From positions 1 to 64,000 of IMG/VR virus record IMGVR_UViG_3300032288_002343: a stretch of 64,000 nucleotides of DNA; one strand, written 5' to 3'. Below the pieces are notes generated by a model, which ran no database searches, had not been told where the DNA came from, and saw only the letters and a list, made by a program, of their open reading frames with translations. Positions 10,076 to 63,926 of the stretch are shown here, piece by piece; the first letter of the stretch is position 1; each line of letters begins with the position of its first letter. Position numbers and translations under genes: made by a program. This DNA comes from a virus (lineage: Duplodnaviria > Heunggongvirae > Uroviricota > Caudoviricetes).

Positions 10076-10289
10076 TACAATCTTTTATCTTATTGCTATA
10101 TTATGTTCTTTTTTCGACCAGATACACTATCCCCATTCTATTATCAGTGGTTATGGATGCTTCCATTTACCAGAATCAACCACCAATTGACTATCCATCT
10201 GTAGGGAGTAGATACATCCCTACCCACCCAACCGCCCCAAAGTTACAACATATACATACCAACTTCCAAATTTATTTTTTAATGGTTTA

Positions 10290-11654: not shown

Positions 11655-12083
11655 ATGAAAAGAAATGAAATTCTTGAGTATTTAACTCCTTTATTTATAG
11701 AACAATTGGACAAGATAACCAACACGTATAAAGTTATTGGTATATCAGGAGACTTTGCCAGAAAGAATGGTATAGGCTCATTAACATATGACGAAAGTCC
11801 TATGTGGCTGCAGTTTAGAGGGGCAAACAGTGATAGTAATGCTGTTCTCTTTAAATGTTCACTGAGTAATGTAGGATTTGAGATACCATTAAGTAGTGAT
11901 GATATAGACACATTGTTATGGTCTAGTGGTGGGCACAGTGTAGTGTATGATTATTTCAAAAGGATCAAATATCTCCATCTGAAGGAACATCATCCTACAG
12001 TTTGGGAAGAACAGCATCCTTCCAATATAGCAAGAGTTGAGGCTTTCCTAGACTCAGCAGGCTATACAGAGCAAGACAGATAA
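11655..12083 (+). CDS. hypothetical early protein
   Basis: The ORF track starts at TTG 11586; the first ATG is at 11655. A conserved 22-nt leader motif lies just upstream. Confidence 0.5.
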   Translation: MKRNEILEYLTPLFIEQLDKITNTYKVIGISGDFARKNGIGSLTYDESPMWLQFRGANSDSNAVLFKCSLSNVGFEIPLSSDDIDTLLWSSGGHSVVYDYFKRIKYLHLKEHHPTVWEEQHPSNIARVEAFLDSAGYTEQDR

Positions 12084-12115
12084 ATCATTATTAATCAACT
12101 ATTTAAATCATTTTT

Positions 12116-12460
12116 ATGCTTACATATGAAAAAGTTTGGAGCAATAGAAGTTTAGTGCTTCATTACACAGCTAATACAGCTAAAGAGTATGCTACAATGA
12201 AAAGAAAACTGCATGAACACAGTGAATATGACACTGAGTGGACAAAAAAGATACGTGATTGGGTGGATGCAGGCTATTTTAAGTATGAGTTTGATGAGGA
12301 GTTTTTAGGAGATAGTGCCTGCATCTTCAGAATCACCTTTTATGAGGTGAAGTTATCTAAAGAGTTCCTTATAGACTTAGATAGCTATCTATCTGAATAT
12401 TCATCTGAAAAGATTAGTTGTGTGACACGTATGGATATAGAAGTTCTTCTTAATGATTAA
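12116..12460 (+). CDS. hypothetical early protein
   Basis: 114 aa ORF preceded by the same conserved leader motif. Confidence 0.5.
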   Translation: MLTYEKVWSNRSLVLHYTANTAKEYATMKRKLHEHSEYDTEWTKKIRDWVDAGYFKYEFDEEFLGDSACIFRITFYEVKLSKEFLIDLDSYLSEYSSEKISCVTRMDIEVLLND

Positions 12461-12526
12461 GAGCCTGTAGCAGGGCTCTTTTCTTTTTTATAAACTCTTA
12501 ATAATCAACCATTTAAACACATTATT

Positions 12527-12859
12527 ATGAACGCACAAGCAGAGTTCAACAGCTTTATTGTAGGCAAACCTGATGTTATATGTGCTTATGTACAGGATAT
12601 AGGATGGTATGATGATGATGAACCACAACCAGCACGTATTGAGCTTCCTTTGGGATATACAGATGAACAATATGGTGAGTTTATGGGTAAGCTAAACTTT
12701 ACATATGACAGTGGTTATGGAGCTCAGAATTTAGATGGTGTTATATGGTTCAAGGATGGATCGTGGGCTACAAGAGGAGAATATGATGGAAGTGAGTGGT
12801 GGCAATACCATAAACTTCCTGAAGTGCCAACCTATCTCTATCCTGAGGAAGATAGATAA
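12527..12859 (+). CDS. hypothetical early protein
   Basis: 110 aa ORF preceded by the same conserved leader motif. Confidence 0.5.
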   Translation: MNAQAEFNSFIVGKPDVICAYVQDIGWYDDDEPQPARIELPLGYTDEQYGEFMGKLNFTYDSGYGAQNLDGVIWFKDGSWATRGEYDGSEWWQYHKLPEVPTYLYPEEDR

Positions 12860-12900: not shown

Positions 12901-13461
12901 ATGGCACAGCCTTTTATTGTTTTTCATAGACAAGCAATCGTTCGCTCCTGTATTTCTATACTGGGAGCTTTTTTATTAACACTTGTAAATCAACCTTTTA
13001 TGAGACATAAATTGAGAGAAAAGCTCATCAATAGGCTTCACGCAAAATTAAATCGTGGTTATGATCACTTTCTTGAGGTGCTTGGACACGGTTGTCCTTT
13101 AGGAATAGATCCTATTGATTCAATCGAGTTATCAGTACGTGAACCGAAGCAAATTGAATGCTATCAAGGACCTGTTATTTTACTGAATGACAGTGCATCT
13201 CATCAAGTGAATCATCCAATATTTGAAGGAGATATTACACCCTTCACTAGAGGAATTACAGGCAATCTTTGCAGGATGTATATTTTGGATGGTATATTTC
13301 CTATATCAAAAACACTACCAATACCACACTGGGGAACAGCTGAATATGCTCAATTGGCTATCATCAGACGTAAGAAAATAACAGAACAACGTTTGAAAGA
13401 TGGCACAGCAGAGGTAAGAAATGGTATGGTTTGGTATAAAGCAAAAAAGTTAAACAATTAA
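12901..13461 (+). CDS. hypothetical protein
   Basis: 186 aa ORF. Overlaps a shorter alternative-frame ORF, so the call is uncertain. Confidence 0.3.
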   Translation: MAQPFIVFHRQAIVRSCISILGAFLLTLVNQPFMRHKLREKLINRLHAKLNRGYDHFLEVLGHGCPLGIDPIDSIELSVREPKQIECYQGPVILLNDSASHQVNHPIFEGDITPFTRGITGNLCRMYILDGIFPISKTLPIPHWGTAEYAQLAIIRRKKITEQRLKDGTAEVRNGMVWYKAKKLNN

Positions 13462-13659
13462 AAATCAATAAGTTATGTTACTAAAATGGATCTATTATGG
13501 TGTATCTCTAGTATTAGTTGCACCATATCTCACCTGGAATGCTTTTGTTAGCCTCATTATGTGGGATGCTAAGTATTGGGACAACGCCTGTTATGGTGTT
13601 TACAGAGGAATGGATGATGATGAAAATCACTTTAACCCTCAAAACAAATTTTAAATAGC

Positions 13660-14784
13660 ATGGCACAGTACGATTTACTCATAGTGGGATCTGGCTTATA
13701 TGGTAGTGTATTTGCATATATTATGAGACAGTCAGGTTATCGTTGTCTTGTGATAGATCGTCGTGCTCATACTGGAGGTAACATCTATTGTGAGCGTAAA
13801 GAGGATATTGATGTCCATACCTATGGAGCACATATCTTTCACACTAATGATCAGGATACCTGGGAGTTTGTAAATAGCTTTGTTCCCTTCAATAGATTCA
13901 CCAATTCACCAATGGCTGTATATAAGGGAAAGATGTATAATCTTCCTTTTAATATGAATACCTTCTATCAATTATGGGGAATTAGTAATCCTCAAGAAGT
14001 AAAGCAAAAGATAGCTGAGCAGGTAAAGGAGGCAGGCATAACAAAACCTACTAACTTAGAAGAACAAGCTATTAGTCTGGTAGGTACAGATATTTATGAA
14101 GTGTTGATAAAAGGCTACACTGAGAAACAGTGGGGAAGGTCATGTAGAGAACTACCAACATTCATTATTAAACGATTACCAGTTAGGTTCACCTTTGATA
14201 ATAACTATTTCAATGACAAATATCAAGGTATACCTGAAGGAGGATACAATCGCTTAACTGAAGGATTGCTGGGCGACACACCTATACAGCTTAAGATGGA
14301 CTATCTTGCTAATAGAGAGTATTTCAACTCATTAGCACATTATATACTTTATACAGGTCCTATTGATGCATTCTACAATTATAAGTATGGTACACTAGAT
14401 TATCGCAGCCTTGGATTTCAAGAGCAGTATTTACCAATAGATAACTATCAAGGTGTGGCTGTTGTCAATTATACAGAGGTAGAAGTTCCCTTCACTCGTA
14501 TTGTAGAGCATAAACATTTTACATTTGGTAATCAAGCAGGCACTATCATCACAAAAGAATATCCTATGCAATGGGAAAAGAACCTTGAGCCTTATTATCC
14601 TATCAACGATGAGGTAAATAATAAGCTATTTGCCAGATATCAAGCTCTTGCAGCACATGAATCTAATGTACTATTTGGTGGAAGGTTAGCTGATTACAAG
14701 TATTATGATATGCATCAAGTTATTGCCTCTGCTCGTGTGCGTGCAAATCAATTTATTCAAACTAAATTAAAACAGTCTATATGA
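13660..14784 (+). CDS. glf: UDP-galactopyranose mutase
   Basis: 374 aa. Near full-length similarity to bacterial Glf as recalled from memory. FAD dinucleotide-binding motif VGSGLYG. Other matching segments: HTGGN, YGAHIFHTND, FNRFTNSP, NLPFNMNTF, LEEQAISLVG, IKGYTEKQWGR, RLPVRFTFDNNYF, YQGIP, TRIVEHKHF, EPYYPIND, GRLADYKYYDMHQVI. Confidence 0.9.
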   Translation: MAQYDLLIVGSGLYGSVFAYIMRQSGYRCLVIDRRAHTGGNIYCERKEDIDVHTYGAHIFHTNDQDTWEFVNSFVPFNRFTNSPMAVYKGKMYNLPFNMNTFYQLWGISNPQEVKQKIAEQVKEAGITKPTNLEEQAISLVGTDIYEVLIKGYTEKQWGRSCRELPTFIIKRLPVRFTFDNNYFNDKYQGIPEGGYNRLTEGLLGDTPIQLKMDYLANREYFNSLAHYILYTGPIDAFYNYKYGTLDYRSLGFQEQYLPIDNYQGVAVVNYTEVEVPFTRIVEHKHFTFGNQAGTIITKEYPMQWEKNLEPYYPINDEVNNKLFARYQALAAHESNVLFGGRLADYKYYDMHQVIASARVRANQFIQTKLKQSI

Positions 14785-14901
14785 AAAAGTTATTCCTATT
14801 AGCATTTATTGCTATATTTATGTTGCAAAGCTGTGCCACAAATGGGTATGGCTGCAAGGGCAGATCAAAGCTCATCACACGTGTAAAACAATTCAATTAA
14901 T
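14782..14901 (+). CDS. small putative lipoprotein (39 aa)
   Basis: MKKLFLLAFIAIFMLQSC...: signal peptide with a lipobox-like LQSC. Below the ORF-track size cutoff. Confidence 0.3.
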
Positions 14902-15068
14902 CCTTTAATTAACATCCAAATGAAAACAATCACCTTCAGCTCTCCCAGAGAGTTTGCTTTATTTAAAGCCTTAGCCAACCGTTTACAAATCTTATTTATG
15001 TACTCAGTGAGCCACGGTATTATCACCGTGGAAGCTGATGCATCATCGCTTGAAGGGTTGGGTTATTA

Positions 15069-15102
15069 AGGATGGAAAGGACAGCCCTGAAATATGGGCT
15101 GT
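15069..15102 (+). terminator. rho-independent terminator
   Basis: GGACAGCCC-tgaaatat-GGGCTGTTCC hairpin followed by TTTTTT. Confidence 0.5.
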
Positions 15103-15368
15103 TCCTTTTTTAACTTATCCTGTTCTGGGGGAACAACGCTCTCGCTCCATGCGTTAGTACCAGTGATGGGACTAAACATCCTGTGTAAGATTGTCACTTT
15201 TAAAAACAAATAATATGACAGCAGAATTTATATTATGGCTAAAAGACTACTACCAATACAAAGATGGTATGTGGTATTGCAAGCTAGAAAAACCTTATGT
15301 AACTGGTAACCAAAGGAAGTTTTACACTGAGGAAGAACTCATTAGAAAATACAAAGAAACCTACGGTT

Positions 15369-15421
15369 AACACTTTTACGTTTGAAAAAGTGTTGTAAAT
15401 CACACTTTTACGTACGTAAAA
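15369..15421. promoter_or_regulatory. pair of palindromic operator-like sites sharing TTTTACGT
   Basis: AACACTTTT-acgtttg-AAAAGTGTT (9-bp inverted repeat) and the perfect 16-bp palindrome TTTTACGTACGTAAAA 12 nt downstream. They lie upstream of the secreted-protein gene at 15517. Confidence 0.35.
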
Positions 15422-15516
15422 CTGTATCCACACCCATAATGAGTCATATAATGCACTTTATGGCTCATATTGGTCCTTTATAAGTCACATTATCGCTCAC
15501 AACTTAAACCTAACCT

Positions 15517-15945
15517 ATGAAAAAGTTATTTCTATGTCTGGTGCTAGTTATGGCATCCGTCATAAGCTATTGTCAAAAGGATGAGGCTATCCTTTATAAA
15601 GCCTATCAAACTGAGTTTTACACCTACAACACTGGTACAGAAAAATGGGTGCTGCAAACTAAACATGATGATGTAAACATCAGTATTGTGTTCTTCAAGA
15701 ACTCTATCAATGTTCAAGCTCTTACGCCTACACTATTCAAGCTCAAAAAAGACACACAGGAGTCTTTTAACAAAGAAACCATTTATGGGGTGAAGTTTGA
15801 TGCTTTAGAATGTGTAAAAGAGGTGGCCTGCAAGGTTAATTACATATATGTTAAGAACAGCAATGACTTTATTCTTAGTATAGTGTTTAATGATGATACA
15901 TTAGGCAGTGTAAATCTCAGATATTATTGTAAAATGAATGACTAA
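15517..15945 (+). CDS. secreted protein (N-terminal signal peptide)
   Basis: MKKLFLCLVLVMASVISYCQ signal peptide. 142 aa. Confidence 0.5.
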   Translation: MKKLFLCLVLVMASVISYCQKDEAILYKAYQTEFYTYNTGTEKWVLQTKHDDVNISIVFFKNSINVQALTPTLFKLKKDTQESFNKETIYGVKFDALECVKEVACKVNYIYVKNSNDFILSIVFNDDTLGSVNLRYYCKMND

Positions 15946-16150
15946 TATTTTGTAAAGATTCATGCAAACAGTAATACATAACACATTATAAATCATTTAC
16001 TTATGAACAAAGAAGAGCAAAAACAGCTCATTACAGAAATAATGAATGAGGATGCTAAAGATGACATCATACAACTAGCAAAAGAAAGCTGGGAAGGATG
16101 TCAGGGATGTGATGAGAATGATAGAAACTTTTGGATAAACGGATTTATTC

Positions 16151-16404: not shown

Positions 16405-16620
16405 ATGATAGGAACAATATTCAGAAAGCATGTCGAGAGATATGAAGCTGGAGAAGCTGGCAAATCTATGTATCAAGCGTGGAAGGTAACAAAAGACCTA
16501 GGAGATGGACTGTATGAATGTGTACGTGTAGATAATACACAAGATCCTATGGGTGCTGCTAATCCACAGAAGCGTACATTTAAACAAAAAGACATCCTTA
16601 ACTATCTTAAAACTAAATAG
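16405..16620 (+). CDS. hypothetical protein
   Basis: 71 aa ORF, tightly packed with its neighbours. Confidence 0.4.
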   Translation: MIGTIFRKHVERYEAGEAGKSMYQAWKVTKDLGDGLYECVRVDNTQDPMGAANPQKRTFKQKDILNYLKTK

Positions 16621-35684: not shown

Positions 35685-35691
35685 TAAATTT

Positions 35692-43713: not shown

Positions 43714-44012
43714 AAAACCAGTTTTTCTACACTCGTAAGGAGTTAAAATCAGGGACTCCAGAAAACCCTGTGTACAATGTATTTCGTGACAGCTTTAACA
43801 TCAACAAGGTGATTCGCTCTGTTGCTATTGAGGATGGACGTATAATGATTTTATTAGATGATATCCATGAGCGTGCTCAGGAGGTTCCTGAAATTGATCC
43901 TCGTACTAATAAGATGAAGGGTATGAAGCGTCAGAAGAATACATTCCAGTCTGAAATTTATTTAGAAGGAGAAGACGTAGAACGTTTTTATGCTGCCACT
44001 AATATCATGTAA
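43710..44012 (+). CDS. hypothetical protein
   Basis: 100 aa ORF. Confidence 0.4.
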   Translation: MKNQFFYTRKELKSGTPENPVYNVFRDSFNINKVIRSVAIEDGRIMILLDDIHERAQEVPEIDPRTNKMKGMKRQKNTFQSEIYLEGEDVERFYAATNIM

Positions 44013-44742
44013 AATGATCACTTATGGTAGGGTGAGTACGCTTGAGGAAAGTTTAGAATCTTTCCTCAGGCAGGACTACCCTGCTGATAAATGTGAGCTA
44101 GTGATAGTGAATGACTATCCCTTACAAACTCTTAAGTTTGATCACCCACAGGTGAAGATTGTAAATGTCAATCAAACATTCACAACTATTGGAGCTAAGG
44201 AAAACTTTGCAACAGAAATGTGTGATGGAGAGATTATATGCCAGTGGGATGATGATGATTTAGCTATGCCTTGGCATTTACAGAATGTAGCTAAATATTT
44301 CACAGATGATGTGAACATTCTCCATTGGAATCCTGGTGTGTTTTATAACGGAGATAATATAACAGACATCACCTGGATAGGTAATTCAGGAATAGTATTT
44401 CGTAAATCTGTTTGGAAAGAAATAGGAGGACATCCTATTGAGAACGCTGGATATGACATGACATTCATAGAAACTCTGCATAAGTATGGAGGAAGACTAT
44501 TTGCTGAACCTCCTAAAGCTGAAGCTAGCTGGTTTTATATGTGGGGAGGACGTAGCTATCACATGTCTGGTCAGGGACATGATAAACCTGGCAAACCTAA
44601 TGCCATCCAAAGGCACAGTGCATATATAGAAAACCTTAGACAGCAGGGTAAGATTCCTACAGGTGAGGTGCAACTCAATCCTCATTGGAAAAAGGATTAT
44701 GTTAAGATGTTAGAAGACCACATAAAAAAAGCCCCTAGATAG
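43990..44742 (+). CDS. family 2 glycosyltransferase
   Basis: N-terminal GT-A start ITYGRVSTLEESLESFLRQDYP, VIVNDYP, DxD region QWDDDDL. Confidence 0.6.
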   Translation: MLPLISCKMITYGRVSTLEESLESFLRQDYPADKCELVIVNDYPLQTLKFDHPQVKIVNVNQTFTTIGAKENFATEMCDGEIICQWDDDDLAMPWHLQNVAKYFTDDVNILHWNPGVFYNGDNITDITWIGNSGIVFRKSVWKEIGGHPIENAGYDMTFIETLHKYGGRLFAEPPKAEASWFYMWGGRSYHMSGQGHDKPGKPNAIQRHSAYIENLRQQGKIPTGEVQLNPHWKKDYVKMLEDHIKKAPR

Positions 44743-53857: not shown

Positions 53858-53888
53858 TTTGAAACTACCAAATATTTTTTTACCTTTG
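53858..53888 (+). promoter_or_regulatory. Bacteroidota-type promoter (TTTG-N19-TACCTTTG) with near-leaderless start of the mega-enzyme gene
   Basis: atTTTGaaactaccaaatatttttt-TACCTTTG-ctac-ATG. The -7 box ends 4 nt before the ATG at 53893. Confidence 0.5.
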
Positions 53889-53892
53889 CTAC

Positions 53893-56800
53893 ATGCCAAA
53901 TAGCTATACATTCTTCAAGCCAGAAATAAGACAGTGGTTCATTGACAATGTTCCCACCAGTAAGAGAATCTTAGATGTAGGCCCAGGACAGGGGACCTAT
54001 TCCAACCTACTTAGAGACCTTGGATATAGGATGGATGCAGTGGAAGTGTGGGCTCCCTACATAGAGCAATTTGATTTGCGATCTAAGTATGATAATGTCT
54101 ATAACGCCAACATCTTAGACTTTGATTTAACAGATTACGACTTTATTATACTAGGTGATGTTCTAGAGCATATTAGCACAGAGAACGCTCAGAACCTAAT
54201 TGACACTATAGTAAACTCTCTAAAAGATTGCCTAGTGGCAATTCCCTACATGATGGAGCAGGACGGGGAAGAGTATGGAAATGTTTATGAGACCCACCTT
54301 CAAGCAGACCTCACTCCTGATGTAATGAGGCAGCGCTATAAGATTTTAGAACCCATCTATAAGAATCAGTATTATGGTTATTACATCAATAAGCGTATTA
54401 GAATAAAGCGTGGGTTTGTAATGTACGCTACAGAAAGCTATTTAGATACTGTACAGGCAGCTGTAGATTCAATTCGTAAATACAGCTCTCTTAACATTTT
54501 TGTATATATGGTAAACTCCACTGCAAGAGTGAGAGGTGCTGTAACTATTGAATGGCCTGTTGCTATAAAACCTACAGAAAAGAAATCGTTTATTGACCGT
54601 GGAGATAGTAATGTCTATAAACTATTAATCCAGCGTCCTCAGATTGTAAGAGATGCACTACGTTATATGGAAACTGTGGCTTATGTAGATAGCGATAGTG
54701 TTGCCACTCCTTATATCGAACGTATTTTTGACATGTTCCCTGAGAAATCCTCCATCCCTTATTTTGTAGAGGGTATTTATGAATGGATGCTTGCTAATGG
54801 TAGAGGGGGAGCTGATTCTTATGATGATCTATCTACCACTCTTGAGCATCCAGCCTGTGAGCTGTTTGGTGTTAACCAGAAGGTTAGAAAGTTATATAGA
54901 CAAACTGGATATTTTGTAGCAGGCCAGTGGTGTGACAAGTTTCTAGCAGAGTGGAGATGGATGTGTATGCATCCTGAGGTATTTAAAAACCCTCAATACT
55001 ATGCACCCTATCATGAAGAAACTATTGTTAATACCCTCCTATGGAAGCATAACTTCCATGAGGGTTTGCCATACATCTATATAAACGGTGGGCTCGATAG
55101 AGTGAATAAAGCATACGGTGGTGAGGCCAAGTATATTCCTGGAATTCGTAACAATTTAGGACACTTCTTTAGACTACCTGATTCAAGACAAGACATCCTC
55201 TTCTTTCATGGAGAGAAAGATCCTGTTAGAATGAAAGAAATATCTGATAGAATAGACTTCTATAATAAGTACAAGATTGACCCCACAAAAAACTGGGGAG
55301 ATATTATTTCTCATAGGATCATCTCTCATTTTACAACAAAGAAGATTGATCCTATGGATATTTTCCATTTTGATACAAGTGCTATTGTTCCAAAAAAGAA
55401 AGGAAAACTTCTTGCTGTAGGAAGTGCTATGGTGTTTGCTAGACAGAATGACTATGTGTGGGGAACAGGTGTAATATCAGACAGAGAGGTGAATATAGAG
55501 GAACATCCTAGAAAGATATATGCTGTAAGAGGACCTATTACTAGAAAAGAATTACTTCGTGCAGGATTAGAATGTCCTGAGGTGTATGGTGATCCTGCTC
55601 TTTTATTTCCACGTATATACCAACCTAATGTCGATAAGAAGTACAAGTATGGAATAATTCCACACTATTCTGAATATCAGAACGCTGATGTTCTTAATGC
55701 TTTGTACAAGCTAGAAGATATGGAAGTGAAAGTGATTAATATCACTACAGGAATAGAACAATTTGTAGATGAGGTGAATGAGTGTGAATACATCATCTCT
55801 TCTAGCTTACATGGTATAATTGTAGCAGATGCATACAGAATACCTAATGTTCGTGTGCGCATGTCTAATGATATTGTAGGGGGAGATTTCAAGTATATGG
55901 ACTACTTTGCATCTGTAAAACGTGAATACCAACACAAACCTATTTGGATTACAGAGAACACTACACTAGAAGATATTGAAAAGTTTCCATATGAATTAGG
56001 AGACATCAGTTGTGCTGATGACCTATTAGCTAATGCTCCTTGGAAAGATCCTGAGTGTGCACTGTTTACTCCTACTAAAATTTTGTTTGTAGCACCGCAT
56101 CTATCTACAGGTGGAATGCCTGCCTTCCTATTGAAAAGAATAGATGCACTTCTTGCACACTCTGATTTTGAGGTGCATGTTGCTGAGTTTAGTTGCTATA
56201 GTAATGAGTTTGTAGTGCAGCGTAATAAAATTAAAGCAACACTAGGTAAAAGATTCCATGAGGTGGGAGCTGACAAGATGAATCTACTAAACATAATCCA
56301 TGATAACAACATAGATGTAGTGCATGTTGATGAGATTATGGAAGGGTTTGACAGCTTTAATCGTGTACCCACACCTGTATTAAGAGCTCTATATGACTCT
56401 AGAAGAACATGGCGTATTGTTGAGACATGTCACAATGTATGGTTCAATCCTGATAAAGACAAAATATTCCATCCTGATGGATATGCATTCTGTACTCCTT
56501 ATCATGAAATCACATTTGGTAACATGCCTTCTGAGAAGAAGGTGATTCAGTTTCCAATTGAGAATAGAGTGCCAATCTATCAGATGAAACGTAGAGCTAA
56601 AGAACAATTAGGATTTGATCTTAACAAAAAACATGTGCTCAATGTAGGACTATGGACTCCTGGTAAAAACCAAATAGAGGGTTTAGAGATAGCTAGACAA
56701 CTCCCTGACATTCAGTTTCATTTTGTAGGCAATCAAGCTCCTAACTTTGAAGACTACTGGGGACCAGCGATGAAAGATCTTCCTCCTAATGTAAAGATTT

Positions 56801-58254
56801 GGGGAGAGCGCTCTGATACAGAAACATTCATGCATGCTGCAGATATGTTCATGTTCAACTCAACGTGGGAATGTAATCCTCTTGTAGTGAGAGAGGCTAT
56901 ATCTTATGGTCTACCTGTACTCACTCGTGATCTACCACAATATGTAGGAATGTTTGATGATTATATTGTGAAATTAGATGATAGTAGAAAGGTTTGGCAA
57001 GTTAGAGAAATACTGAACTCAGTTGAACCAATAAAAATCCCAAATGATACGAACGAACGTTTCTCTAAAGATCATGAAGTTTTCTATCGTCACTTATTAA
57101 ACTTACCACACATTAAACAGAATAAGGTGTCAGATGTAAAGGTGAATACACATTTCATAGGACGCCCTACAGTAGAGGTTTTAGGAGAAAGTGATAAGAC
57201 TTATACAGTTAAGTTTATTGATGATGGAGGATTTATAATACATCAATCAAAGATTAAAGCTAATGAATGGACAGCTGCCAATCGTGCCTATTATACTGAT
57301 TGGAAAATTGAGGTGTATGAAGAAGATGAGTTGATATATGAACATCAGTTTGATGTAAAAGGTAAGCGTGTATATATTGCTTTCGATAGTGCTTCCTTAG
57401 GAGACAATATTGCATGGATTCCATATGTATTAGAGTTTAAGAGAAAACATAACTGTCATGTGATAGTGTCTACCTTCAAGAACTTCTTATTCAAGGATGT
57501 ATATCCTGAGCTAGAGTTTATCAATCCAGGAGAACAAGCACCGAACATATATGCTATGTATAAATTGGGCTGGTTCTATAATTCAAACTTAGAGCCTGTT
57601 GAACCCCATAAAATTCCTCTTCAAAAGGCTGCCACTAACATTCTAGGACTAGAATTCAACGAACTCAATCCTAGAATAAAGCATAATCTTGCTAAGAATG
57701 TATATGGTAAGTATGTAACAATTGCTACTAATTCAACAGCTCAGTGTAAGTTCTGGACTAAAGAAGGCTGGCAGGGACTGATTAACTATCTAGTTGAAAG
57801 AGGATATAAGGTGGTGAATGTATCTATGGAGAATAATCCATTTGACAACTGTGAGCAGTTGAGAGACAAGTCCATGGAAAACACTATGAACACTATTCAC
57901 CACAGTGAATTCTTCATAGGTTTATCTAGTGGATTGAGTTGGTTAGCGTGGGGACTTGGTAAACAGGTTGTTATGATTGCTAACTTCTCAGATGCCTATC
58001 ATGAATTTACGAGCAGATGTACAAGGATTGTAAAAGAAAATGTGTGCCATGGTTGTTGGAACACTCACAAGTTTGATAAGTCAGACTGGTACTGGTGTCC
58101 TTTGCAGAAAGGAACTAACAGAGAATTTGAATGTCACACATCCATCAATGCTAATGATGTAATTGAGAAGGTAGAATTTATTATTGAAAACATGGGCAAA
58201 CACAATCTAGATACTCATTCTAGATGTGATTCATGTGATAAAAACATACTATGA
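53893..58254 (+). CDS. 1453-aa multidomain glycan-synthesis enzyme: SAM methyltransferase + GT-A (DxD) + pyruvyl-transferase-like + GT4 + GT9 heptosyltransferase-like
   Basis: MTase motif I ILDVGPGQG and IILGDVLEH. GT-A DxD AYVDSDS. SSLHGIIVADAYRIPNV (PS-pyruvyl-transferase-like). GT4 N-terminal KILFVAPHLSTGG and C-terminal ECNPLVVREAISYGLPVLT. GT9-like KRVYIAFDSASLGDNIAWIPYVLEFKRKH and KYVTIATNSTAQCKFW. Confidence 0.75.
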   Translation: MPNSYTFFKPEIRQWFIDNVPTSKRILDVGPGQGTYSNLLRDLGYRMDAVEVWAPYIEQFDLRSKYDNVYNANILDFDLTDYDFIILGDVLEHISTENAQNLIDTIVNSLKDCLVAIPYMMEQDGEEYGNVYETHLQADLTPDVMRQRYKILEPIYKNQYYGYYINKRIRIKRGFVMYATESYLDTVQAAVDSIRKYSSLNIFVYMVNSTARVRGAVTIEWPVAIKPTEKKSFIDRGDSNVYKLLIQRPQIVRDALRYMETVAYVDSDSVATPYIERIFDMFPEKSSIPYFVEGIYEWMLANGRGGADSYDDLSTTLEHPACELFGVNQKVRKLYRQTGYFVAGQWCDKFLAEWRWMCMHPEVFKNPQYYAPYHEETIVNTLLWKHNFHEGLPYIYINGGLDRVNKAYGGEAKYIPGIRNNLGHFFRLPDSRQDILFFHGEKDPVRMKEISDRIDFYNKYKIDPTKNWGDIISHRIISHFTTKKIDPMDIFHFDTSAIVPKKKGKLLAVGSAMVFARQNDYVWGTGVISDREVNIEEHPRKIYAVRGPITRKELLRAGLECPEVYGDPALLFPRIYQPNVDKKYKYGIIPHYSEYQNADVLNALYKLEDMEVKVINITTGIEQFVDEVNECEYIISSSLHGIIVADAYRIPNVRVRMSNDIVGGDFKYMDYFASVKREYQHKPIWITENTTLEDIEKFPYELGDISCADDLLANAPWKDPECALFTPTKILFVAPHLSTGGMPAFLLKRIDALLAHSDFEVHVAEFSCYSNEFVVQRNKIKATLGKRFHEVGADKMNLLNIIHDNNIDVVHVDEIMEGFDSFNRVPTPVLRALYDSRRTWRIVETCHNVWFNPDKDKIFHPDGYAFCTPYHEITFGNMPSEKKVIQFPIENRVPIYQMKRRAKEQLGFDLNKKHVLNVGLWTPGKNQIEGLEIARQLPDIQFHFVGNQAPNFEDYWGPAMKDLPPNVKIWGERSDTETFMHAADMFMFNSTWECNPLVVREAISYGLPVLTRDLPQYVGMFDDYIVKLDDSRKVWQVREILNSVEPIKIPNDTNERFSKDHEVFYRHLLNLPHIKQNKVSDVKVNTHFIGRPTVEVLGESDKTYTVKFIDDGGFIIHQSKIKANEWTAANRAYYTDWKIEVYEEDELIYEHQFDVKGKRVYIAFDSASLGDNIAWIPYVLEFKRKHNCHVIVSTFKNFLFKDVYPELEFINPGEQAPNIYAMYKLGWFYNSNLEPVEPHKIPLQKAATNILGLEFNELNPRIKHNLAKNVYGKYVTIATNSTAQCKFWTKEGWQGLINYLVERGYKVVNVSMENNPFDNCEQLRDKSMENTMNTIHHSEFFIGLSSGLSWLAWGLGKQVVMIANFSDAYHEFTSRCTRIVKENVCHGCWNTHKFDKSDWYWCPLQKGTNREFECHTSINANDVIEKVEFIIENMGKHNLDTHSRCDSCDKNIL

Positions 58255-58928
58255 ACCTAGACAACTTTATATGGGAACCAAATCTGTACCCAACATTTAA
58301 AGAAACAATTATCAATGAGATCTTTGAACAGAAGATCTACGAACGTATATTTCCTGTAGAGGAGGGAGATGTAGTGCTGGATATTGGGGCTAGTCTTGGA
58401 CCATTCACATTCTCTATTCTACACAAGAAACCAAAACATGTGTTTGCCCTAGAGCCAAGTTACTCAGAGTTTAAAACGTTGGTTCTCAATACATTACACG
58501 GAAATGTTACACCTATCAACAAAGGGATAGGTGCTAAGGTGGGAGAGTTTAAGTTTGACAACATCTTTCTAAACGATGGTATAAAGATGTACTCAACTAC
58601 ATTCACACAGTTGATTGATGATTATAACATCCAGACAATTGACTTCCTTAAGACAGATTGTGAGGGTGGGGAGTATGACATATTCACTCCTGCTAATCTC
58701 ATATGGATTAAGCAGAACGTAAAGAAGATTGCAGGAGAATGGCACTTAACCACTCCTGAACTAAGAGAAAAGTTTAGAGCATTCAGAGACACCTACTTAA
58801 GAATATTCCATAGACATCAAGTGTATTCAGTGGATGCTGTTAATATCACTTGGGATCTATGGAATGATAAATTTTTGAACTACTATAGTGAAGTGATTCT
58901 TTATATAGACAATCAGGATTATTTGTAG
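58251..58928 (+). CDS. FkbM-family SAM-dependent methyltransferase
   Basis: VLDIGASLGPFTF motif. 225 aa. Start overlaps the mega-enzyme stop. Confidence 0.6.
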   Translation: MNLDNFIWEPNLYPTFKETIINEIFEQKIYERIFPVEEGDVVLDIGASLGPFTFSILHKKPKHVFALEPSYSEFKTLVLNTLHGNVTPINKGIGAKVGEFKFDNIFLNDGIKMYSTTFTQLIDDYNIQTIDFLKTDCEGGEYDIFTPANLIWIKQNVKKIAGEWHLTTPELREKFRAFRDTYLRIFHRHQVYSVDAVNITWDLWNDKFLNYYSEVILYIDNQDYL

Positions 58929-59506
58929 TGATCTCCTCCTACCCAGAGAACAAAAGAACGACGTATACCAGTTGTCACACGTGTAACACGGTGCATCATA
59001 TATGACGGGAAAATAAACACTACGCCTTTTTCTTTAGGAGCTGTCATATAACCATCTCCACCCTGCCAGTATTGTAAATCACCACCTTCATATTCATCAG
59101 GGCCAGACAGTTGTACAGTGATGGATACCTTTCTTTGAGAGAGCCATCCTGGTCCAATATCTTGGTGCCAGCCATAATGACCATTATCTACAGCATGATA
59201 TTCAGTGTACTGAATGCTATCCATTACAGAGTGAAGATCAAACTTCCATAAAGCATTATTAGCTTCTGTTGCCATGTTTATCATCTTCTCATAAAGCCAT
59301 TCCCATTCAGAATTTTTTGGAACCCATTTTATAATAGAAGAACGAATGTCCTTCATTGAATCACTAGCCACTGTGGCTTGTTCAAAAGGAAGAGCAGCAA
59401 CACCAGCATATACACGTTCTAACTCTTCAGGAGAAAACCCCTGTAGATAGTAATAGTAGTTGGTTGGGTCAGTTGTCTCTTTAGGAAATACGTATGTATT
59501 TGTCAT
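58919..59506 (-). CDS. 2OG-Fe(II) oxygenase, prolyl 4-hydroxylase-like (P4Hc)
   Basis: HxD in HYGWHQDIG, second His in MMHRVTRV, RxS in RRSFVLW. GGDLQYW. Confidence 0.7.
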   Translation of the reverse strand: MTNTYVFPKETTDPTNYYYYLQGFSPEELERVYAGVAALPFEQATVASDSMKDIRSSIIKWVPKNSEWEWLYEKMINMATEANNALWKFDLHSVMDSIQYTEYHAVDNGHYGWHQDIGPGWLSQRKVSITVQLSGPDEYEGGDLQYWQGGDGYMTAPKEKGVVFIFPSYMMHRVTRVTTGIRRSFVLWVGGDHYK

Positions 59507-60723
59507 ATGTTTGGTTTATAAATATAATTTGCAACACCCTCTTCAGTTCCAAATTTATTAGGAATCTCATCAAGATCTTTATCTTTTTGTTCGTACACCC
59601 AGTCAGTAATTTTTAACTGCTTGAATCTATTAGCTATGCTTTCATTATAGAACTCAGCAATAGATGCCACTCTACGTTGAATATCAGCACGAGCTACATC
59701 ATGTGAATTGCGCTCTTGTTCATTCTGGTAGATGATTTGTATATATCCTAGACGACAAATCTTACAGAACTTTGTGTACAAGAAACTTCTCACTACTAGT
59801 TCATAATCATCAGCAATAGTCATATCTCTATTATGTCCTCCTATAGACAAGTAGAAACTTTTACGCCATGCTCTAATGTGATTAGGAATTCCTACAATAT
59901 GACGTATAGTTTTTGGATTAATGTTATGTTGATCACAAACATCCCAAATATTTCCTTTGTAATCCTCTCTTCTATACTTTCCATATCCAAAAGCAAACCC
60001 TGGTCCGTATGTAAGAGACTGAAACTGTTCATTCACCTCCACCCAATCAGTGAAGAAGAACCCAACATCTGGATATTTAAGTGCAGCATTATATAAATCT
60101 AATGCACATGTGTCTGTAAGAATATCATCATGATCAAGCTCTGCTAGAATAAATCCTTTGCACAGCATCGCTGCTCTGTATTTAGCTTCACCAATATTAC
60201 CTCCACTCTTCTCTTCAAAATTGTATACACGCACTCGATGGTCATCTTTAGCAATCTTTTTTGCAATCTCAAGAGTTTCTTCATCGTCACTATCATGTAC
60301 AAGCACCCATTCCCAATCTTTATGAATTTGACTTACTAAGGATGCATAAGTTCTTAATAGTTTTTTTCCTGTCTTATACATGGATGTAAAGAAGGAAATT
60401 GTTCTAGCGTTGTTCTGTGTAAGAATCTGATTCATGGCACAGAAATAAGCACGCTGTCCTAGATCTTCTGTTACTGTTTCTGTATTAAACCATCTCTTTC
60501 TTACCTCATGTGTTTCATTAAACAGCTTTGGAAACTCTCTATCTGATTTACCAATTGTAACAATTGCATCTGGTTTGAATTCAACAAGTGTTTTAGTCAA
60601 TTCTTTTTCATCAGGAACATGTTTCACACAAAGTGTTCTTTCTTCAAAATCAAACCTCTGTATAGTTTTTAACTCTGGAGTGCCTGGTCCAACGTATAAT
60701 ATTTTAGGCAACGTGGTTTTCAT
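59503..60723 (-). CDS. family 2 glycosyltransferase
   Basis: WVLVHDSDDEETLEIAKKIAKDDHRVRV and ELDHDDIL (DxD). Confidence 0.6.
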   Translation of the reverse strand: MKTTLPKILYVGPGTPELKTIQRFDFEERTLCVKHVPDEKELTKTLVEFKPDAIVTIGKSDREFPKLFNETHEVRKRWFNTETVTEDLGQRAYFCAMNQILTQNNARTISFFTSMYKTGKKLLRTYASLVSQIHKDWEWVLVHDSDDEETLEIAKKIAKDDHRVRVYNFEEKSGGNIGEAKYRAAMLCKGFILAELDHDDILTDTCALDLYNAALKYPDVGFFFTDWVEVNEQFQSLTYGPGFAFGYGKYRREDYKGNIWDVCDQHNINPKTIRHIVGIPNHIRAWRKSFYLSIGGHNRDMTIADDYELVVRSFLYTKFCKICRLGYIQIIYQNEQERNSHDVARADIQRRVASIAEFYNESIANRFKQLKITDWVYEQKDKDLDEIPNKFGTEEGVANYIYKPNI

Positions 60724-61846
60724 GATACTTGGTTTTGAAATGATTCAGGTTATCAAGCAACCTTGGTTTGTGGTGCTCAAAATCTGGATCATCTATAATT
60801 GCATTAATCAATTTAACACCTTGCTCAGGTTTGTTAGTCCAAAAGCAAGATACAGAAAGTTCATCATAATTCCATTTACCATATGCTGATTCATCTACAA
60901 AAAGAATATACTTATTCTTCATAGCAGTCAAGTCTTTCTTGACAGCCTCATTTAGGTAGTGATATCCCTTTTCAAAGTCTCTTAACGTGTTAAAATGTAT
61001 TCCCATGTAATGATAGGGCTCAGCTCTGTCTGGGAATATTTCTATAGCTTTTCTCATCTCACGTTCAATAAGTTCAATATCAGCATTCATGCTTATGTAG
61101 ATTTTTCCTATCCTAAGCTGTGCCTCAAATCTTTCTTCTATCCACGTGTTTTGTAGTTTTAGGTAGAGATTGTTCCACTGTAGCGCTTCTGTGTACATGC
61201 CATAATCCATGTAGCTTTGTGCTGTATAGAAGGCAGATCTGTTGTTTAGATCATCTGGGTCCTCTATAAGCGTGTCAAAGAATTGCTTCTGAAGGCGCTG
61301 TGCATCATAGAAAAACTTCTTAGGATCGAATGCACGTGACCCAATACCCTCACAAATGATATAAGAGGAATCACTGATGTCGCCCATTGAAAAGTTTGGC
61401 TTCTCAAGGCACTTGATTGTAGTGTGAGCCACACCACAGAACTTCCATGTATAAGAAGCTTTGAATAAAATAAGTGCTTTATAGTTAGAACCCCCACGTC
61501 TAACATTCATATAGTAGGAGTCTTTGTCAGGGTCATTTTCGGGAAAGAAAAATTCGCCAGCCAAAAGATCGTCAGCATCCAAATGCATGATATAATCTGC
61601 CTTATCTTTAGCACAAGCAATCATCTTAGTCTTGCTCTTGTCAAATCCCTCAAAGGTTTCAGCATAGAACTTTCCTGGAATGTTCTTCTCTTTAAAGAAG
61701 GTTTCCACTATTTCTTGTGTTCTATCTGTAGAACCAGTGTCATATACGACCCAGTGGTCAATATATTTATAGACAGACTCAAGCGTATCTTTGATACAAT
61801 GTTCTTCGTTCTTGCACATTGTAGCAAAGCAAATTGTTGGTTTCAT
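60704..61846 (-). CDS. family 2 glycosyltransferase with TPR-like C-terminal domain
   Basis: ICFATMCKNEEHCIKDTLESV...VYDTGSTDRT...MHLDADDLL. TPR-like YHYMGIHFNTLRDFEKGYHYLNEA. Confidence 0.6.
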   Translation of the reverse strand: MKPTICFATMCKNEEHCIKDTLESVYKYIDHWVVYDTGSTDRTQEIVETFFKEKNIPGKFYAETFEGFDKSKTKMIACAKDKADYIMHLDADDLLAGEFFFPENDPDKDSYYMNVRRGGSNYKALILFKASYTWKFCGVAHTTIKCLEKPNFSMGDISDSSYIICEGIGSRAFDPKKFFYDAQRLQKQFFDTLIEDPDDLNNRSAFYTAQSYMDYGMYTEALQWNNLYLKLQNTWIEERFEAQLRIGKIYISMNADIELIEREMRKAIEIFPDRAEPYHYMGIHFNTLRDFEKGYHYLNEAVKKDLTAMKNKYILFVDESAYGKWNYDELSVSCFWTNKPEQGVKLINAIIDDPDFEHHKPRLLDNLNHFKTKYHENHVA

Positions 61847-62757
61847 TAAATATCAAAAAAGAATAGGTGAAAGAATCTAGAGTTTTCAATAGCATCTCCG
61901 AAGTAGCCAGTCGCAGCATGAATTGATTTAGCGTCAAACATTACTAAACGATTATAAACATTAGCTACACTATCTACCATCTCAAATGTGCTATTATCAT
62001 AGAAGTTAAGATCACTATTTTTCCCTTTAAATGTTGGTTCAAATAGAGGATGGTCGTTTGTATCAAAGCGTGTAGCTCCTGTAAGCTTGCTCTTAAAGCT
62101 AGCTGTTCCAGAACGCAAAGGTGCATCTGGTGTTAGATACACCATTGCCGCATAGTTCTGAGTATCAACATGATATACAATAGGATCTTGTGCTGTGCAG
62201 AACTGAAACACACCATTTGCATAGTTAGGGTGATTCCAATTATAGATTGGTCTACCAAGGATGCTTTCAAATGCTTCCTTCGTACCACTCAATATGAATT
62301 GATCTGTGCTTCTTTGCCCTCTGTGGTAACCAGAAAAATTAAAGGTGAGGTTCTTCATTGCATATTCTCTCACCTCATCAGGATTATTGTAAAAGTTGTC
62401 AACAACAATTAAGTTCTTGTTCTTGTTATTAAATCCTAGATGATAAATGTACCAAGGATAGATACTACCTATCTCACGAACAATACCTCTTTCAGTGACT
62501 ACATCTATAAGCTTGTTAAAATCTTCCTTTCTTAGCTTAAACTCTACTCCCACTTGAGTTGTAGGAAGAGTAGGGTATACCCCTAAAACGTCAAAACGGT
62601 CATGAACATTAACTTTAATGTCCTGACCGTCTATCTTTAACCCTGTGACTTTCAGAGTTTTATGCGTTATCCAACCTTTTATATTATATTCATCTCCATC
62701 AGGAGTGATAGAATCAATGTACCAAAGAACATTACTGTTCCTAGAATCATGTGCCAT
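61846..62757 (-). CDS. cupin / 2OG-Fe(II) oxygenase-like protein (tentative)
   Basis: NLIVVDNFYNNPDEVREYA, HxD-like YHVDTQ, a later His in SIHAATGYFG and NSRFF. Assignment is weak. Confidence 0.35.
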   Translation of the reverse strand: MAHDSRNSNVLWYIDSITPDGDEYNIKGWITHKTLKVTGLKIDGQDIKVNVHDRFDVLGVYPTLPTTQVGVEFKLRKEDFNKLIDVVTERGIVREIGSIYPWYIYHLGFNNKNKNLIVVDNFYNNPDEVREYAMKNLTFNFSGYHRGQRSTDQFILSGTKEAFESILGRPIYNWNHPNYANGVFQFCTAQDPIVYHVDTQNYAAMVYLTPDAPLRSGTASFKSKLTGATRFDTNDHPLFEPTFKGKNSDLNFYDNSTFEMVDSVANVYNRLVMFDAKSIHAATGYFGDAIENSRFFHLFFFDI

Positions 62758-62810
62758 AAAACGTAGATTTCAGCAAATCTACAAAAAAAGTTATTTGTTT
62801 ACAAATTTAT

Positions 62811-63353
62811 TTAAGGGAGTCTATCTACAAGAGGGAAATAAAGAAGACCTCCTGGATTTAGATTTGCTGCATATTTAGCTTCCAAAATAGGTTTTTGTTG
62901 ATTAAGATCTTCTATGTTATTTACCCAGATGTCAATTAATATGACATCATATTTTTCATTGGTAACATGAGTCATTATATCTCCTTGAATAATATTCACC
63001 TTTGGATGAAGATAGTTTGTATTATTCTTAACAAGGTCAATAACTTCTGAATCTAGCTCAACAACATCCACCTTGGTACAAAAAGGTTGTGTTAGAAAAG
63101 GCGCCACACCCATTCCAAGACCACCACATAGAATACTTGTAAAGCTTCTATTGTAGAGTTTATCTAAATAACTTTCTATAAATTGTACATGATCAAAAAA
63201 GACAGTACCATCAAATGCATGTTGCATGATTAAATACTTATTGTCTTTCTGTTTTACAATTCTCCAATCACCACTTCTTACAAAATTAGTGGTCATTTGA
63301 TTTTTGAAGTTATCTAAAACACCTACACCAGAGAGTCCAGTTTTTACTAACAT
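62811..63353 (-). CDS. spermidine-synthase-fold / class I SAM-binding Rossmann protein
   Basis: ILCGGLGMGV (compare SpeE GGGDGG), VDVVELDSEVIDLV, IQGDIMTHV...YDVILIDIW. Confidence 0.45.
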   Translation of the reverse strand: MLVKTGLSGVGVLDNFKNQMTTNFVRSGDWRIVKQKDNKYLIMQHAFDGTVFFDHVQFIESYLDKLYNRSFTSILCGGLGMGVAPFLTQPFCTKVDVVELDSEVIDLVKNNTNYLHPKVNIIQGDIMTHVTNEKYDVILIDIWVNNIEDLNQQKPILEAKYAANLNPGGLLYFPLVDRLP

Positions 63354-63365: not shown

Positions 63366-63926
63366 TTAAATACAGGTGAGAAATGTTCCTGTTTTTACAA
63401 ACACTGCTATAGTCATATAACGTTTACCAGTTCCAGTAGGAGTGGTAGTATAGTACTGTCCTTGCCCTGAATCAACTGTTCCACAATAAGCAGTAGATGT
63501 AGCTGGACAATCAGTAGCATCAGCTACATCAAATTGTCTTCCACTATTTTTTCCACTACTTGGGACAGCAGCAAATCCAAGTTGTAAGTCAGTTGTTGGG
63601 GGAATAGATACAGTTCCCATTGTATTACATGTTGTACTTATACTACTTCCATATACTAATAGGGTATCAGCTCCAAAACTTATATTGTAATAAATTGCAT
63701 AGTTACCTGTAGTTTCACCAAAAGCACTAGATATATATTTAGCATCTATTGCAATAGAATATCCACATGAATAGCTATAAAAATCACTCATAGCATCAGG
63801 ACTAGAAAATCCTGCACAAGCACTTAATCTACGTAATGAGTAGTCACCTCCTTCACAACAACCATTACCAACTATCTCAGTATATATATCACTAATTGAT
63901 ATTACACCACTGCTAGGAAGAGGCAT
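63366..63926 (-). CDS. Ser/Thr/Gly/Cys-rich protein (possible fiber or adhesin tip)
   Basis: 186 aa, low-complexity S/T/G/Y with 10 Cys. No motif match. Confidence 0.4.
   Translation of the reverse strand: MPLPSSGVISISDIYTEIVGNGCCEGGDYSLRRLSACAGFSSPDAMSDFYSYSCGYSIAIDAKYISSAFGETTGNYAIYYNISFGADTLLVYGSSISTTCNTMGTVSIPPTTDLQLGFAAVPSSGKNSGRQFDVADATDCPATSTAYCGTVDSGQGQYYTTTPTGTGKRYMTIAVFVKTGTFLTCI

Follow-up and report, generated by a model that had tools for sequence, protein, structure and literature searches.

The DNA considered here is a 64,000-nt stretch (hereafter the window), positions 1 to 64,000 of IMG/VR record IMGVR_UViG_3300032288_002343, a virus of the Caudoviricetes, and the gene of interest in it is glf, encoding a predicted UDP-galactopyranose mutase (Glf). 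The open reading frame (ORF) runs from an ATG start to a TGA stop over exactly 13660..14784 on the + strand and codes for 374 amino acids (aa). It lies among small ORFs at the start of a + strand block that continues into the replication genes, strand and GC skew switching at about 10 kb, and from this position it is plausible that glf is an early gene. The features at the locus are:

13660..14784, + strand: glf, UDP-galactopyranose mutase, 374 aa (PF03275 and PF13450, TIGR00031, PDB 1i8t/4mo2, 18/18 active-site residues)
13475..13654, + strand: 59-aa ORF with one predicted transmembrane (TM) helix (residues 10-28), left edge of the glf insertion
14781..14900, + strand: 39-aa lipoprotein-like ORF (MKKLFLLAFIAIFMLQSC...), right edge of the insertion, its start overlapping the glf stop (ATGA)
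15079..15104, + strand: hairpin resembling a terminator (stem of 9 bp, 6 of them GC; T-run), some 300 nt 3' of glf, within the block 13450-15499

The protein matches the Pfam GLF family (PF03275) with E=9e-76 and 254.5 bits (cut-off 26.3) over profile positions 2-203 of 203. With NCBIfam TIGR00031, the 'UDP-galactopyranose mutase' equivalog model with a curated cut-off of 303.75 bits, it scores 396.3 bits over positions 1-377 of 378, a full-length equivalog match. Residues 8-73 form the Rossmann domain (NAD_binding_8, PF13450; E=2.6e-19) that binds flavin adenine dinucleotide (FAD), and the GxGxxG motif is GSGLYG at residues 10-15, inside a VGSGLYG string beginning at residue 9. The top solved structures are Campylobacter jejuni 4MO2 (E=2e-149) and Escherichia coli Glf 1I8T (E=5.6e-147), the latter aligned without a gap over 363 residues (residues 4-366 of the phage protein), and the UDP-galactopyranose mutases (UGMs) of Mycobacterium tuberculosis and Klebsiella pneumoniae come next at about E=1e-90. 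A preliminary description of the window had called this ORF a glf gene conserved with bacterial Glf over nearly its full length, including the FAD-binding motif, and both calls are borne out: the ORF is real, the family thresholds are passed, and solved Glf structures are matched over their full length. The comparison with PF03275 that it had proposed thus succeeded over the entire profile.

Eighteen active-site positions have been tabulated for the UGMs of Aspergillus fumigatus, Deinococcus radiodurans, K. pneumoniae, E. coli, and M. tuberculosis, and the K. pneumoniae R174A and R280A mutants are inactive, both arginines being essential and binding the diphosphate (PMC3322874). Mapped onto E. 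coli UGM with a constant, gap-free offset of +2, the phage Glf has the E. coli residue at 18 of the 18 substrate- and flavin-site positions, and both essential arginines are kept (R172 and R280). A better fit to another flavoenzyme family and a loss of catalytic residues, which the preliminary description had named as signs of a wrong assignment, were both looked for and neither was seen. Judged by its sequence, the ORF at 13660-14784 is a bona fide bacterial-type, FAD-dependent UGM. The best-scoring structure, 4MO2, is that of C. jejuni UNGM, a bifunctional UDP-Gal/UDP-GalNAc pyranose-furanose mutase. R59 and R168 of UNGM reportedly confer its GalNAc specificity (Poulin et al. 2014); at the equivalent positions the phage Glf has His61 and Lys171, as E. 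coli UGM does, and not the two arginines. If these two positions set the specificity, a plain UDP-Gal mutase rather than the UNGM subtype is expected. The enzyme would almost certainly convert UDP-galactopyranose (UDP-Galp) into UDP-galactofuranose (UDP-Galf). This UDP-Galp is taken to be supplied by the host because no phage galE was found in the scans of the window (Pfam for all ORFs of at least 75 aa, PHROGs for selected ORFs).

The insertion of glf can be read from related phages. The 59-aa and 39-aa ORFs are 2-44 nt apart in three of them (L167, L175, and L177) and 1129 nt apart here, and the extra DNA is glf alone, with a 5-nt spacer before it and the ATGA overlap after it. All 80 related-phage loci that cover the region upstream of the polymerase lack glf, and 25 of them span the entire interval. 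The 39-aa ORF, which is not in the source contigs' listed gene calls, is kept at 50-84% identity in about 19 relatives without glf. At the sequence level, these comparisons show that glf was inserted precisely and as a single gene, between two small genes that are conserved, with borders defined to the nucleotide. The idea that the 59-aa TM ORF, glf, and the 39-aa ORF form a mobile envelope cassette was rejected, as the two small ORFs adjoin in relatives without glf. The neighbours of glf are small ORFs only, with no family assigned in the Pfam and PHROGs scans, and a scan for sigma-70-type promoters around glf found 29 against 26.5 expected.

In a strain variant from another sample (L254), segments 11659-12837 and 15500-16001 are replaced. 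The block 13450-15499 is 99.6% identical between the two strains while its flanks are 95-96% identical or replaced. The variant's glf carries two synonymous and no non-synonymous differences, and 7 contigs, which come from 4 sample accessions, encode an identical Glf protein. As read from these alignments, the conservation of the glf block indicates purifying selection, a recent sweep, or both, and the pattern as a whole shows active mosaicism around a conserved glf. The hypervariable early region is also rich in genes for small proteins that have either a TM helix or a signal resembling a lipobox (MKKLFLCLVLVMASVISYC...), at 12901-13461, 13475-13654, and 15517-15945 (+ strand), and such proteins may be host-takeover or superinfection-exclusion factors.

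The homologues of the phage Glf fall into three groups: near-identical proteins that belong to this phage, a cluster with 70-80% identity, and thousands of proteins at 68% or less. Nearly all of the named homologues within the best 120 are from Bacteroidota. Three members of the 70-80% cluster that were looked up (P0004, P0009, and P0011; 76-80% identity) are chromosomal, in a locus with MeaB and a GT2-glf-GT2 arrangement (GT, glycosyltransferase, with its family number), and the loci of P0009 and P0011 extend into a GT1 gene near lptC. The best species-level genomes are freshwater metagenome-assembled genomes (MAGs) at 73-74% identity, two titled Chitinophagaceae (ME-prefixed) and one Sphingomonadales (K_Offshore_40m). 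In a neighbour-joining tree of 187 Glf sequences, the phage protein lies inside a 23-member clade with the MAG loci L085-L087 and zero viral members; no viral Glf comes closer than about 60% identity. On this phylogeny, glf is shown to have been captured from a freshwater Bacteroidota (Chitinophagaceae-like) chromosome. Its GC content is 0.362, and 0.28 at third codon positions, against phage gene means of 0.383 and 0.327, and it shares 68-75% nucleotide identity with the nearest bacterial copies. The phage-like composition together with this divergence argues that glf is neither contamination nor a very recent pickup. That Galf would be absent from the host's own repertoire, as the preliminary description had supposed for many hosts, probably does not apply here, as the nearest homologues (73-80%) are chromosomal glf genes of the likely host group.

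By gene content, the window is truly phage DNA. Its proteins include a portal, a large terminase, a family-A-like DNA polymerase, helicases, and a primase, along with rIIA/rIIB, ribonucleotide reductase, RecA, dUTPase, and a glycoside hydrolase family 19 endolysin. No tRNAs were found in the window, and no integrase or lysogeny genes were found among the Pfam matches of its ORFs; the phage, from lake water and of about 116 kb, looks lytic from its genes. The same phage is also present as a 115,908-bp ENA contig (ERZ28594320, scaffold_26), of which the window corresponds to approximately positions 1564-65563, and hundreds of related uncultured IMG/VR contigs are about 100-117 kb long. No near-identical DNA was found among GenBank phages, so the phage has no close annotated relative there. 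The large terminase is closest to those of Leptolyngbya phage Lbo-JY46 (41%), Cellulophaga phages phi17:2 and phi4:1 (32%), and crAss-like phages (27-29%), suggesting a distant relationship to Cellulophaga phi17:2 and the crAss-like phages. A Bacteroidota-type promoter motif, TTTG-N17-21-TAnnTTTG, occurs 7 times in the window where 2.4 sites would be expected, a count that 0 of 100 shuffles reached; the sites are 10044-10075, 10238-10270, 16461-16493, 35689-35720, 47389-47420, 53858-53888, and 62774-62805, several of them directly 5' of genes. Given the Glf donor clade, the mostly Bacteroidota-infecting terminase relatives, and the promoter-motif enrichment, the host is probably a freshwater Bacteroidota. 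An unusual neighbour of the head module is a protein of the SPFH/Band-7 family (E=8e-28) at 2892-3422 (- strand), directly beside the portal gene.

Ten soluble sugar-related proteins are encoded by the phage, most of them directly 3' of giant collagen-like fibre genes, and a TM segment is predicted in none (no 19-aa stretch reached a hydrophobicity score of 1.6). The features of this part of the genome are listed here, with S-adenosylmethionine abbreviated as SAM, 2-oxoglutarate as 2OG, and prolyl 4-hydroxylase as P4H:

43990..44742, + strand: GT2 glycosyltransferase, lineage core gene (PF00535 E=2e-10)
53858..53888, + strand: Bacteroidota-type promoter motif (TTTG-N-TAnnTTTG), 5 nt 5' of the fusion-enzyme gene
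53893..58254, + strand: 1453-aa fusion enzyme (SAM methyltransferase 21-112, polysaccharide pyruvyl transferase 541-655, GT1/GT4 900-1023, GT9-like GT-B 1270-1396)
58251..58928, + strand: FkbM-family methyltransferase (PF05050 E=7e-10)
58919..59506, - strand: P4H-type 2OG-Fe(II) oxygenase, 195 aa (PF13640 E=1.7e-11; PDB matches to PKHD-type hydroxylases and prolyl 4-hydroxylase)
59503..60723, - strand: GT2 glycosyltransferase, 406 aa (PF00535 E=1.3e-15)
60704..61846, - strand: GT2 glycosyltransferase with TPR repeats (GT2+TPR), 380 aa, best candidate UDP-Galf user (PF00535; PDB GmaR E=3.9e-9)
61846..62757, - strand: DUF6445 protein (PF20043), N-terminal beta-rich and 2OG-Fe(II) dioxygenase domains
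62774..62805, - strand: Bacteroidota-type promoter motif immediately 5' of the DUF6445 gene
62811..63353, - strand: SAM-methyltransferase-like protein, 180 aa (PHROG 15480 methyltransferase E=2.9e-8; weak Spermine_synth match)
63366..63926, - strand: 186-aa protein between the collagen-like fibre gene (beyond the window) and the sugar genes, no family match

The best structure match of the GT2+TPR protein, GmaR, is followed by 7msk (Glyco_trans_2-like) and by TPR proteins over residues 200-309. GmaR is the Listeria flagellin O-GlcNAc transferase and 7MSK a glycocin S-glycosyltransferase; with such relatives, the GT2+TPR protein would have the architecture of a protein-directed glycosyltransferase. 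The GT2 at 59503-60723 has a weak GtrB-like PHROG match in its catalytic domain (E=2.6e-5). In the DUF6445 protein, H196-x-D198, H280, and R294 are invariant in a 38-sequence alignment, and the AlphaFold2 model (pLDDT 88.9) has as its top Foldseek matches OGFOD1, Tpa1, Dictyostelium and human PHD (PHD2), Pseudomonas putida P4H, and amino-acid hydroxylases. As modelled, it is a 2OG-Fe(II) dioxygenase with a prolyl-hydroxylase-like fold, which would give the cluster two oxygenases. The N-terminus of the 186-aa protein is conserved in 8 DUF6445 loci. Homologues of the fusion enzyme at 49-56% identity lie beside the same lysis and structural genes in the relatives L245-L251. Shorter homologues in relatives (about 1130-1180 aa) gave no Pfam match to the pyruvyl transferase or methyltransferase.

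The GT2 at 43990 stands apart from this cluster, following the dUTPase gene and closing the nucleotide-metabolism block. At least 146 related viral stretches carry it; 80 are listed at 64-86% identity, some of them without glf at the syntenic site, and on this distribution the GT2 is independent of the presence of glf. That it was co-acquired with glf from the donor operon was considered and rejected, as it is unrelated to both of the bacterial GT2s that flank glf and is a core gene of the lineage. No flippase, polymerase, initiating transferase, or Gtr-type membrane part is among the Pfam matches listed for the window ORFs, and with the lack of TM segments this makes the phage machinery look cytoplasmic rather than one of lipid-linked export.

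The fibre genes fall outside the window, and their sequences come from a second assembly of this phage (L252:3-5179). Past the 3' end of the window come ORFs of 1559, 131, 1902, and 1182 aa, which share the strand of the sugar genes and lie directly upstream of them. The 1182-aa protein matches Collagen (PF01391, E=2e-110), the Peptidase_S74 tail-fibre chaperone (E=1.6e-16), and tail-fibre PHROGs (E=1e-163), and 303 G-X-Y triplets were counted in it. Of the 1902-aa fibre, the C-terminal 533 aa are visible and consist almost purely of (G-T-S)n. Over 474 fibre triplets, X is mostly A, T, P, or S and Y mostly S, Q, or T, with Lys not among the residues listed. The fibres thus offer many hundreds of Ser/Thr hydroxyls, several dozen G-P-x prolines, and essentially no lysine. 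This near-absence of lysine excludes a hydroxylysine route, and the acceptors would be Ser, Thr, or hydroxyproline. Soluble phage glycosyltransferases linked to structural genes, the arrangement of virion glycosylation, are present here in a cluster that adjoins both the fibre genes and lysis and structural genes. A 2OG-Fe(II) hydroxylase with an HxD...H triad beside a collagen-like substrate, the arrangement of collagen modification, is found as well.

The gene neighbourhoods of homologues, taken 10 kb to either side in IMG/VR loci that are uncultured and in some cases giant-virus MAG bins, link these genes to each other and in part to glf. A GT2+TPR homologue adjoins glf in 8 Glf-bearing viral loci. 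Four T4-like contigs (L024, L028, L045, and L052, the last with gp32, PhoH, and ThyX) share an operon of DUF6445 (1-2 copies), GT2+TPR, glf, and a GT2 of the 59503 type; L069, L075, L077, and L080 have glf and then the GT2+TPR homologue; L067 has only glf, DUF6445, and the 59503-type GT2. Approached from the other side, 4 of 12 viral loci with a GT2+TPR at least 45% identical to that of the phage have glf 38-238 nt away, against 0/80 polymerase and 0/80 DUF6445 control loci (Fisher exact p of about 1e-5, hand calculation). The glf genes beside these close homologues are 35-57% identical to the Glf studied here, that is, different lineages with the same partner. Close GT2+TPR homologues also occur on GVMAG-labelled contigs (L423, L425, L430, and others), and L423 reads DUF6445-glf-GT2+TPR-GT2.

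Collagen-like genes are linked to DUF6445 in the same way. A collagen-like ORF lies within 10 kb in 69 of 80 viral loci with a full-length DUF6445 homologue (L337-L416), usually ending just upstream; the corresponding counts are 0/80 for polymerase loci, 0/80 for bacterial loci, and 3/80 for viral Glf loci. The last count led us to reject the idea that glf itself is generally linked to fibres. The 59503-type GT2 is present in 77 of the 80 DUF6445 loci, at a median of 636 nt downstream, and a P4H-like oxygenase in 33. A module of DUF6445, GT2, and collagen-like protein therefore appears from these loci to be widespread in phages, and as far as we found it is undescribed. In relatives of the phage, the fusion enzyme and collagen fibres are retained, and between them lie a sulfotransferase, an adenosine phosphosulfate (APS) kinase, and a nucleotidyltransferase-like gene in place of the GT2 and oxygenase genes (L245:13344-16277 and L248:13353-16259). 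By its gene content, the slot between the fusion enzyme and the collagen fibre is a variable 'decoration island'.

We favour the possibility that Galf ends up in O-linked glycans on the collagen-like tail fibres. During infection, the phage Glf would convert host UDP-Galp to UDP-Galf, and the consumer would be the cytoplasmic glycosylation machinery of the phage, above all the GT2+TPR protein at 60704-61846. The two oxygenases may hydroxylate fibre prolines first, and the other glycosyltransferases and the methyl- and pyruvyl-transferases would extend the glycan. Expression of glf from the early block could pre-load a UDP-Galf pool, although this is speculation. The preliminary description had suggested that glycosyltransferases of the phage could put Galf into virion or host glycans; the first half of that suggestion has gained three GT2s, the 1453-aa glycan enzyme, and one GT2 that recurrently neighbours viral glf, while the destination of the sugar stays conditional. 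From its gene neighbourhood, the GT2+TPR protein is probably the Galf-using transferase. The collagen-like tail fibre as acceptor, and with it the reading as a whole, is suggested by adjacency and co-occurrence and is a serious possibility of which we are less than half convinced. More tentatively still, many aquatic phages might hydroxylate and O-glycosylate collagen-like fibres with DUF6445/P4H oxygenases and GT2s and with swappable sulfation, methylation, or pyruvylation, the capture of glf adding Galf through a GmaR-like GT2+TPR; such decoration would probably tune adsorption or shield the fibres.

Several observations weigh against Galf on the fibres. The glf gene and the glycan cluster are separated by 45 kb and belong to different transcription blocks, that of glf being probably the earlier. 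A glf was found within 10 kb in 0/80 DUF6445/collagen loci, implying that the fibre-associated module does not generally need Galf, and no collagen-like ORF was found within 10 kb of the tight T4-like DUF6445-GT2-glf-GT2 operons. The GT2 sequences give no sugar specificity and are unlike those of the bacterial glf-linked GT2s: homologues of the phage glycosyltransferases in 85 bacterial glf loci amount to two weak partial matches, and no Galf-transferase is among the solved-structure matches listed for them. About 50 kb of the genome lies beyond the window and was seen in part.

Glf could instead serve the host envelope, by sustaining or boosting UDP-Galf for host Galf-transferases (of lipopolysaccharide, capsule, or exopolysaccharide) after host transcription shutdown and so altering the surface of the cell, which might serve to block superinfection or keep progeny off lysed cells. 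The donor's GT2-glf-GT2 operon, which in 2 of 3 loci runs into the GT1 near lptC, suggests a cell-envelope glycan, and glf has as neighbours in the early block small ORFs that look directed to the envelope: that of the TM protein at 13475-13654, the lipoprotein-like one at 14781-14900 whose start overlaps the glf stop, and another lipoprotein-like one at 15517-15945. These flanking small genes adjoin in relatives without glf, however, and the neighbourhood is thus an insertion site and not a co-evolved cassette. In addition, no phage glycan enzyme has a membrane segment, the flippase, polymerase, and initiating transferase are missing from the Pfam matches listed for window ORFs, the window showed neither an integrase nor lysogeny genes, and the virus-specific linkage of glf to GT2+TPR would be left unexplained. 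We consider this use of Glf rather unlikely. It is also very improbable that glf is merely a passenger, a recent and dispensable gene in a hypervariable region, without a phage partner and with little effect on fitness. It is unique to this phage among the 80 related loci and sits in the most mosaic part of the genome, but its frame and all catalytic residues are intact, and the capture was not recent as its base composition is fully ameliorated at 68-75% nucleotide identity to bacterial copies. Moreover, the protein is identical in all 4 sample accessions with synonymous changes only, and the glf block is more conserved between strains than its flanks (99.6% against 95-96%).

Another use of UDP-Galf would be in DNA hypermodification, where it would donate the sugar with which a hydroxylated pyrimidine of the virion DNA is glycosylated to evade restriction. 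There is a precedent in the Glf of Rhizobium phage RL38J1 (RL38J1_084), which belongs to a proposed glycosyl-5-hydroxycytosine pathway (PMC13326640). Consistent with such a role, glf is in the early, replication-side block, L069, L077, and L080 have glf and GT2+TPR near a dUTPase, and the core GT2 at 43990 comes after the dUTPase, where the nucleotide-metabolism block ends. Yet the window scans, which took in the whole replication and nucleotide module (about 50 kb lying outside), gave no match to ThyA, ThyX, dCMP-hydroxymethylase, nucleotide kinase, DNA methyltransferase, TET/JBP, or T4-type DNA glycosyltransferase. Likewise, the window has neither the ThyA-homologue (D169N) that acts as a 5-hydroxy-dCMP (5hodCMP) synthase in the Pootjesviridae nor glf-syntenic DNA glycosyltransferases and a kinase. 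The two oxygenases resemble P4H and OGFOD1 rather than TET/JBP, and the GT2+TPR protein resembles protein and peptide glycosyltransferases. DNA as the destination of Galf is improbable.

In this genome, glf offers a handle on the purpose of phage glycan clusters. The clean insertion of glf, its virus-specific pairing with GT2+TPR, and the very strong link of DUF6445 and GT2 to collagen-like genes together give a concrete hypothesis, that the fibres of environmental phages are hydroxylated and glycosylated. Were it true, it would change how host range, adsorption, and evasion of antibodies and defences are interpreted, and would assign a function to a Pfam domain of unknown function and to the long-puzzling 'LPS-like' clusters of cyanophages.

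Phage-encoded Glf is not new. In GenBank, 90 phage records match the protein, 84 of them over nearly its full length, and the phages with an annotated Glf include those of Rhizobium, Sinorhizobium, Agrobacterium, Aeromonas, and Lactobacillus; in IMG/VR, relatives are encoded on at least 145 stretches. The glf studied here is an independent capture in a lineage not previously seen with a glf, and what may be novel is the context, a widespread module of collagen-like fibre, oxygenase, and GT2. In the Streptococcus suis 'phage' records FN997652, MK359990, MN270276, OP662531, and MN270279, glf lies within the last 35-50 nt or so of the record end and is probably host flanking DNA, not a phage gene.

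Compared with the bacterial UGMs (E. coli K-12 1I8T, K. pneumoniae, and M. tuberculosis), the phage Glf is alike in length, in the FAD motif, and in the 18/18 E. coli residues (PMC3322874); it differs in being encoded by a lone gene in a lytic-looking phage, without the GT2 and GT1 genes that flank it in the donor operon. The Glf of the Pootjesviridae, including RL38J1 gp084, has been proposed to feed the galactosylation of 5-hydroxycytosine in DNA (PMC13326640). It belongs to the same family, is 42-44% identical to the Glf studied here (tblastn), and likewise would supply a glycosyltransferase pathway of the phage, but its gene is syntenic with those of a ThyA-type 5hodCMP synthase, a nucleotide kinase, and DNA glycosyltransferases; the scans of this window gave no such genes. 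By the neighbour-joining tree, the two are independent captures of glf.

For virion proteins, the closest known precedent is that of mycobacteriophages, whose cytoplasmic glycosyltransferases decorate the C-termini of capsid and tail-tube subunits (Freeman et al. 2023, cited in PMC12619734). As far as we found, demonstrated virion glycosylation is confined to these mycobacteriophage capsid and tail-tube proteins (PMC12619734). The proposed target here is by contrast a collagen-like fibre, and the phage, one of Bacteroidota, would add hydroxylases, methyl- and pyruvyl-transferases, and a nucleotide-sugar mutase. The 'LPS-like' clusters of the T4-like cyanophages P-SSM2, S-SSM7, and S-WAM2 have DUF6445-type oxygenases beside glycosyltransferases and FkbM methyltransferases, as does the cluster described here. 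The T4-like Glf loci examined have no collagen-like gene within 10 kb, unlike this cluster.

Collagen-like proteins are glycosylated in other systems. BclA of Bacillus is a glycosylated collagen-like protein, and mimivirus encodes a collagen hydroxylase and glycosyltransferases; in mimivirus and animal collagen, hydroxylation by a 2OG-Fe(II) enzyme precedes glycosylation, and B. anthracis also has a P4H (PMC8968730, PMC9546862). The phage would differ from mimivirus and animals in using GT2 and DUF6445 enzymes and not those of the LH3/GLT25 type, and in fibres that lack the Lys-in-Y pattern. Like BclA and the mimivirus collagen, it has a Thr-rich or G-X-Y repeat protein with dedicated glycosyltransferases, and if its fibres are modified as proposed, it would be the equivalent, in a bacterial virus, of the way animals and mimivirus modify collagen and of the glycosylation of BclA.

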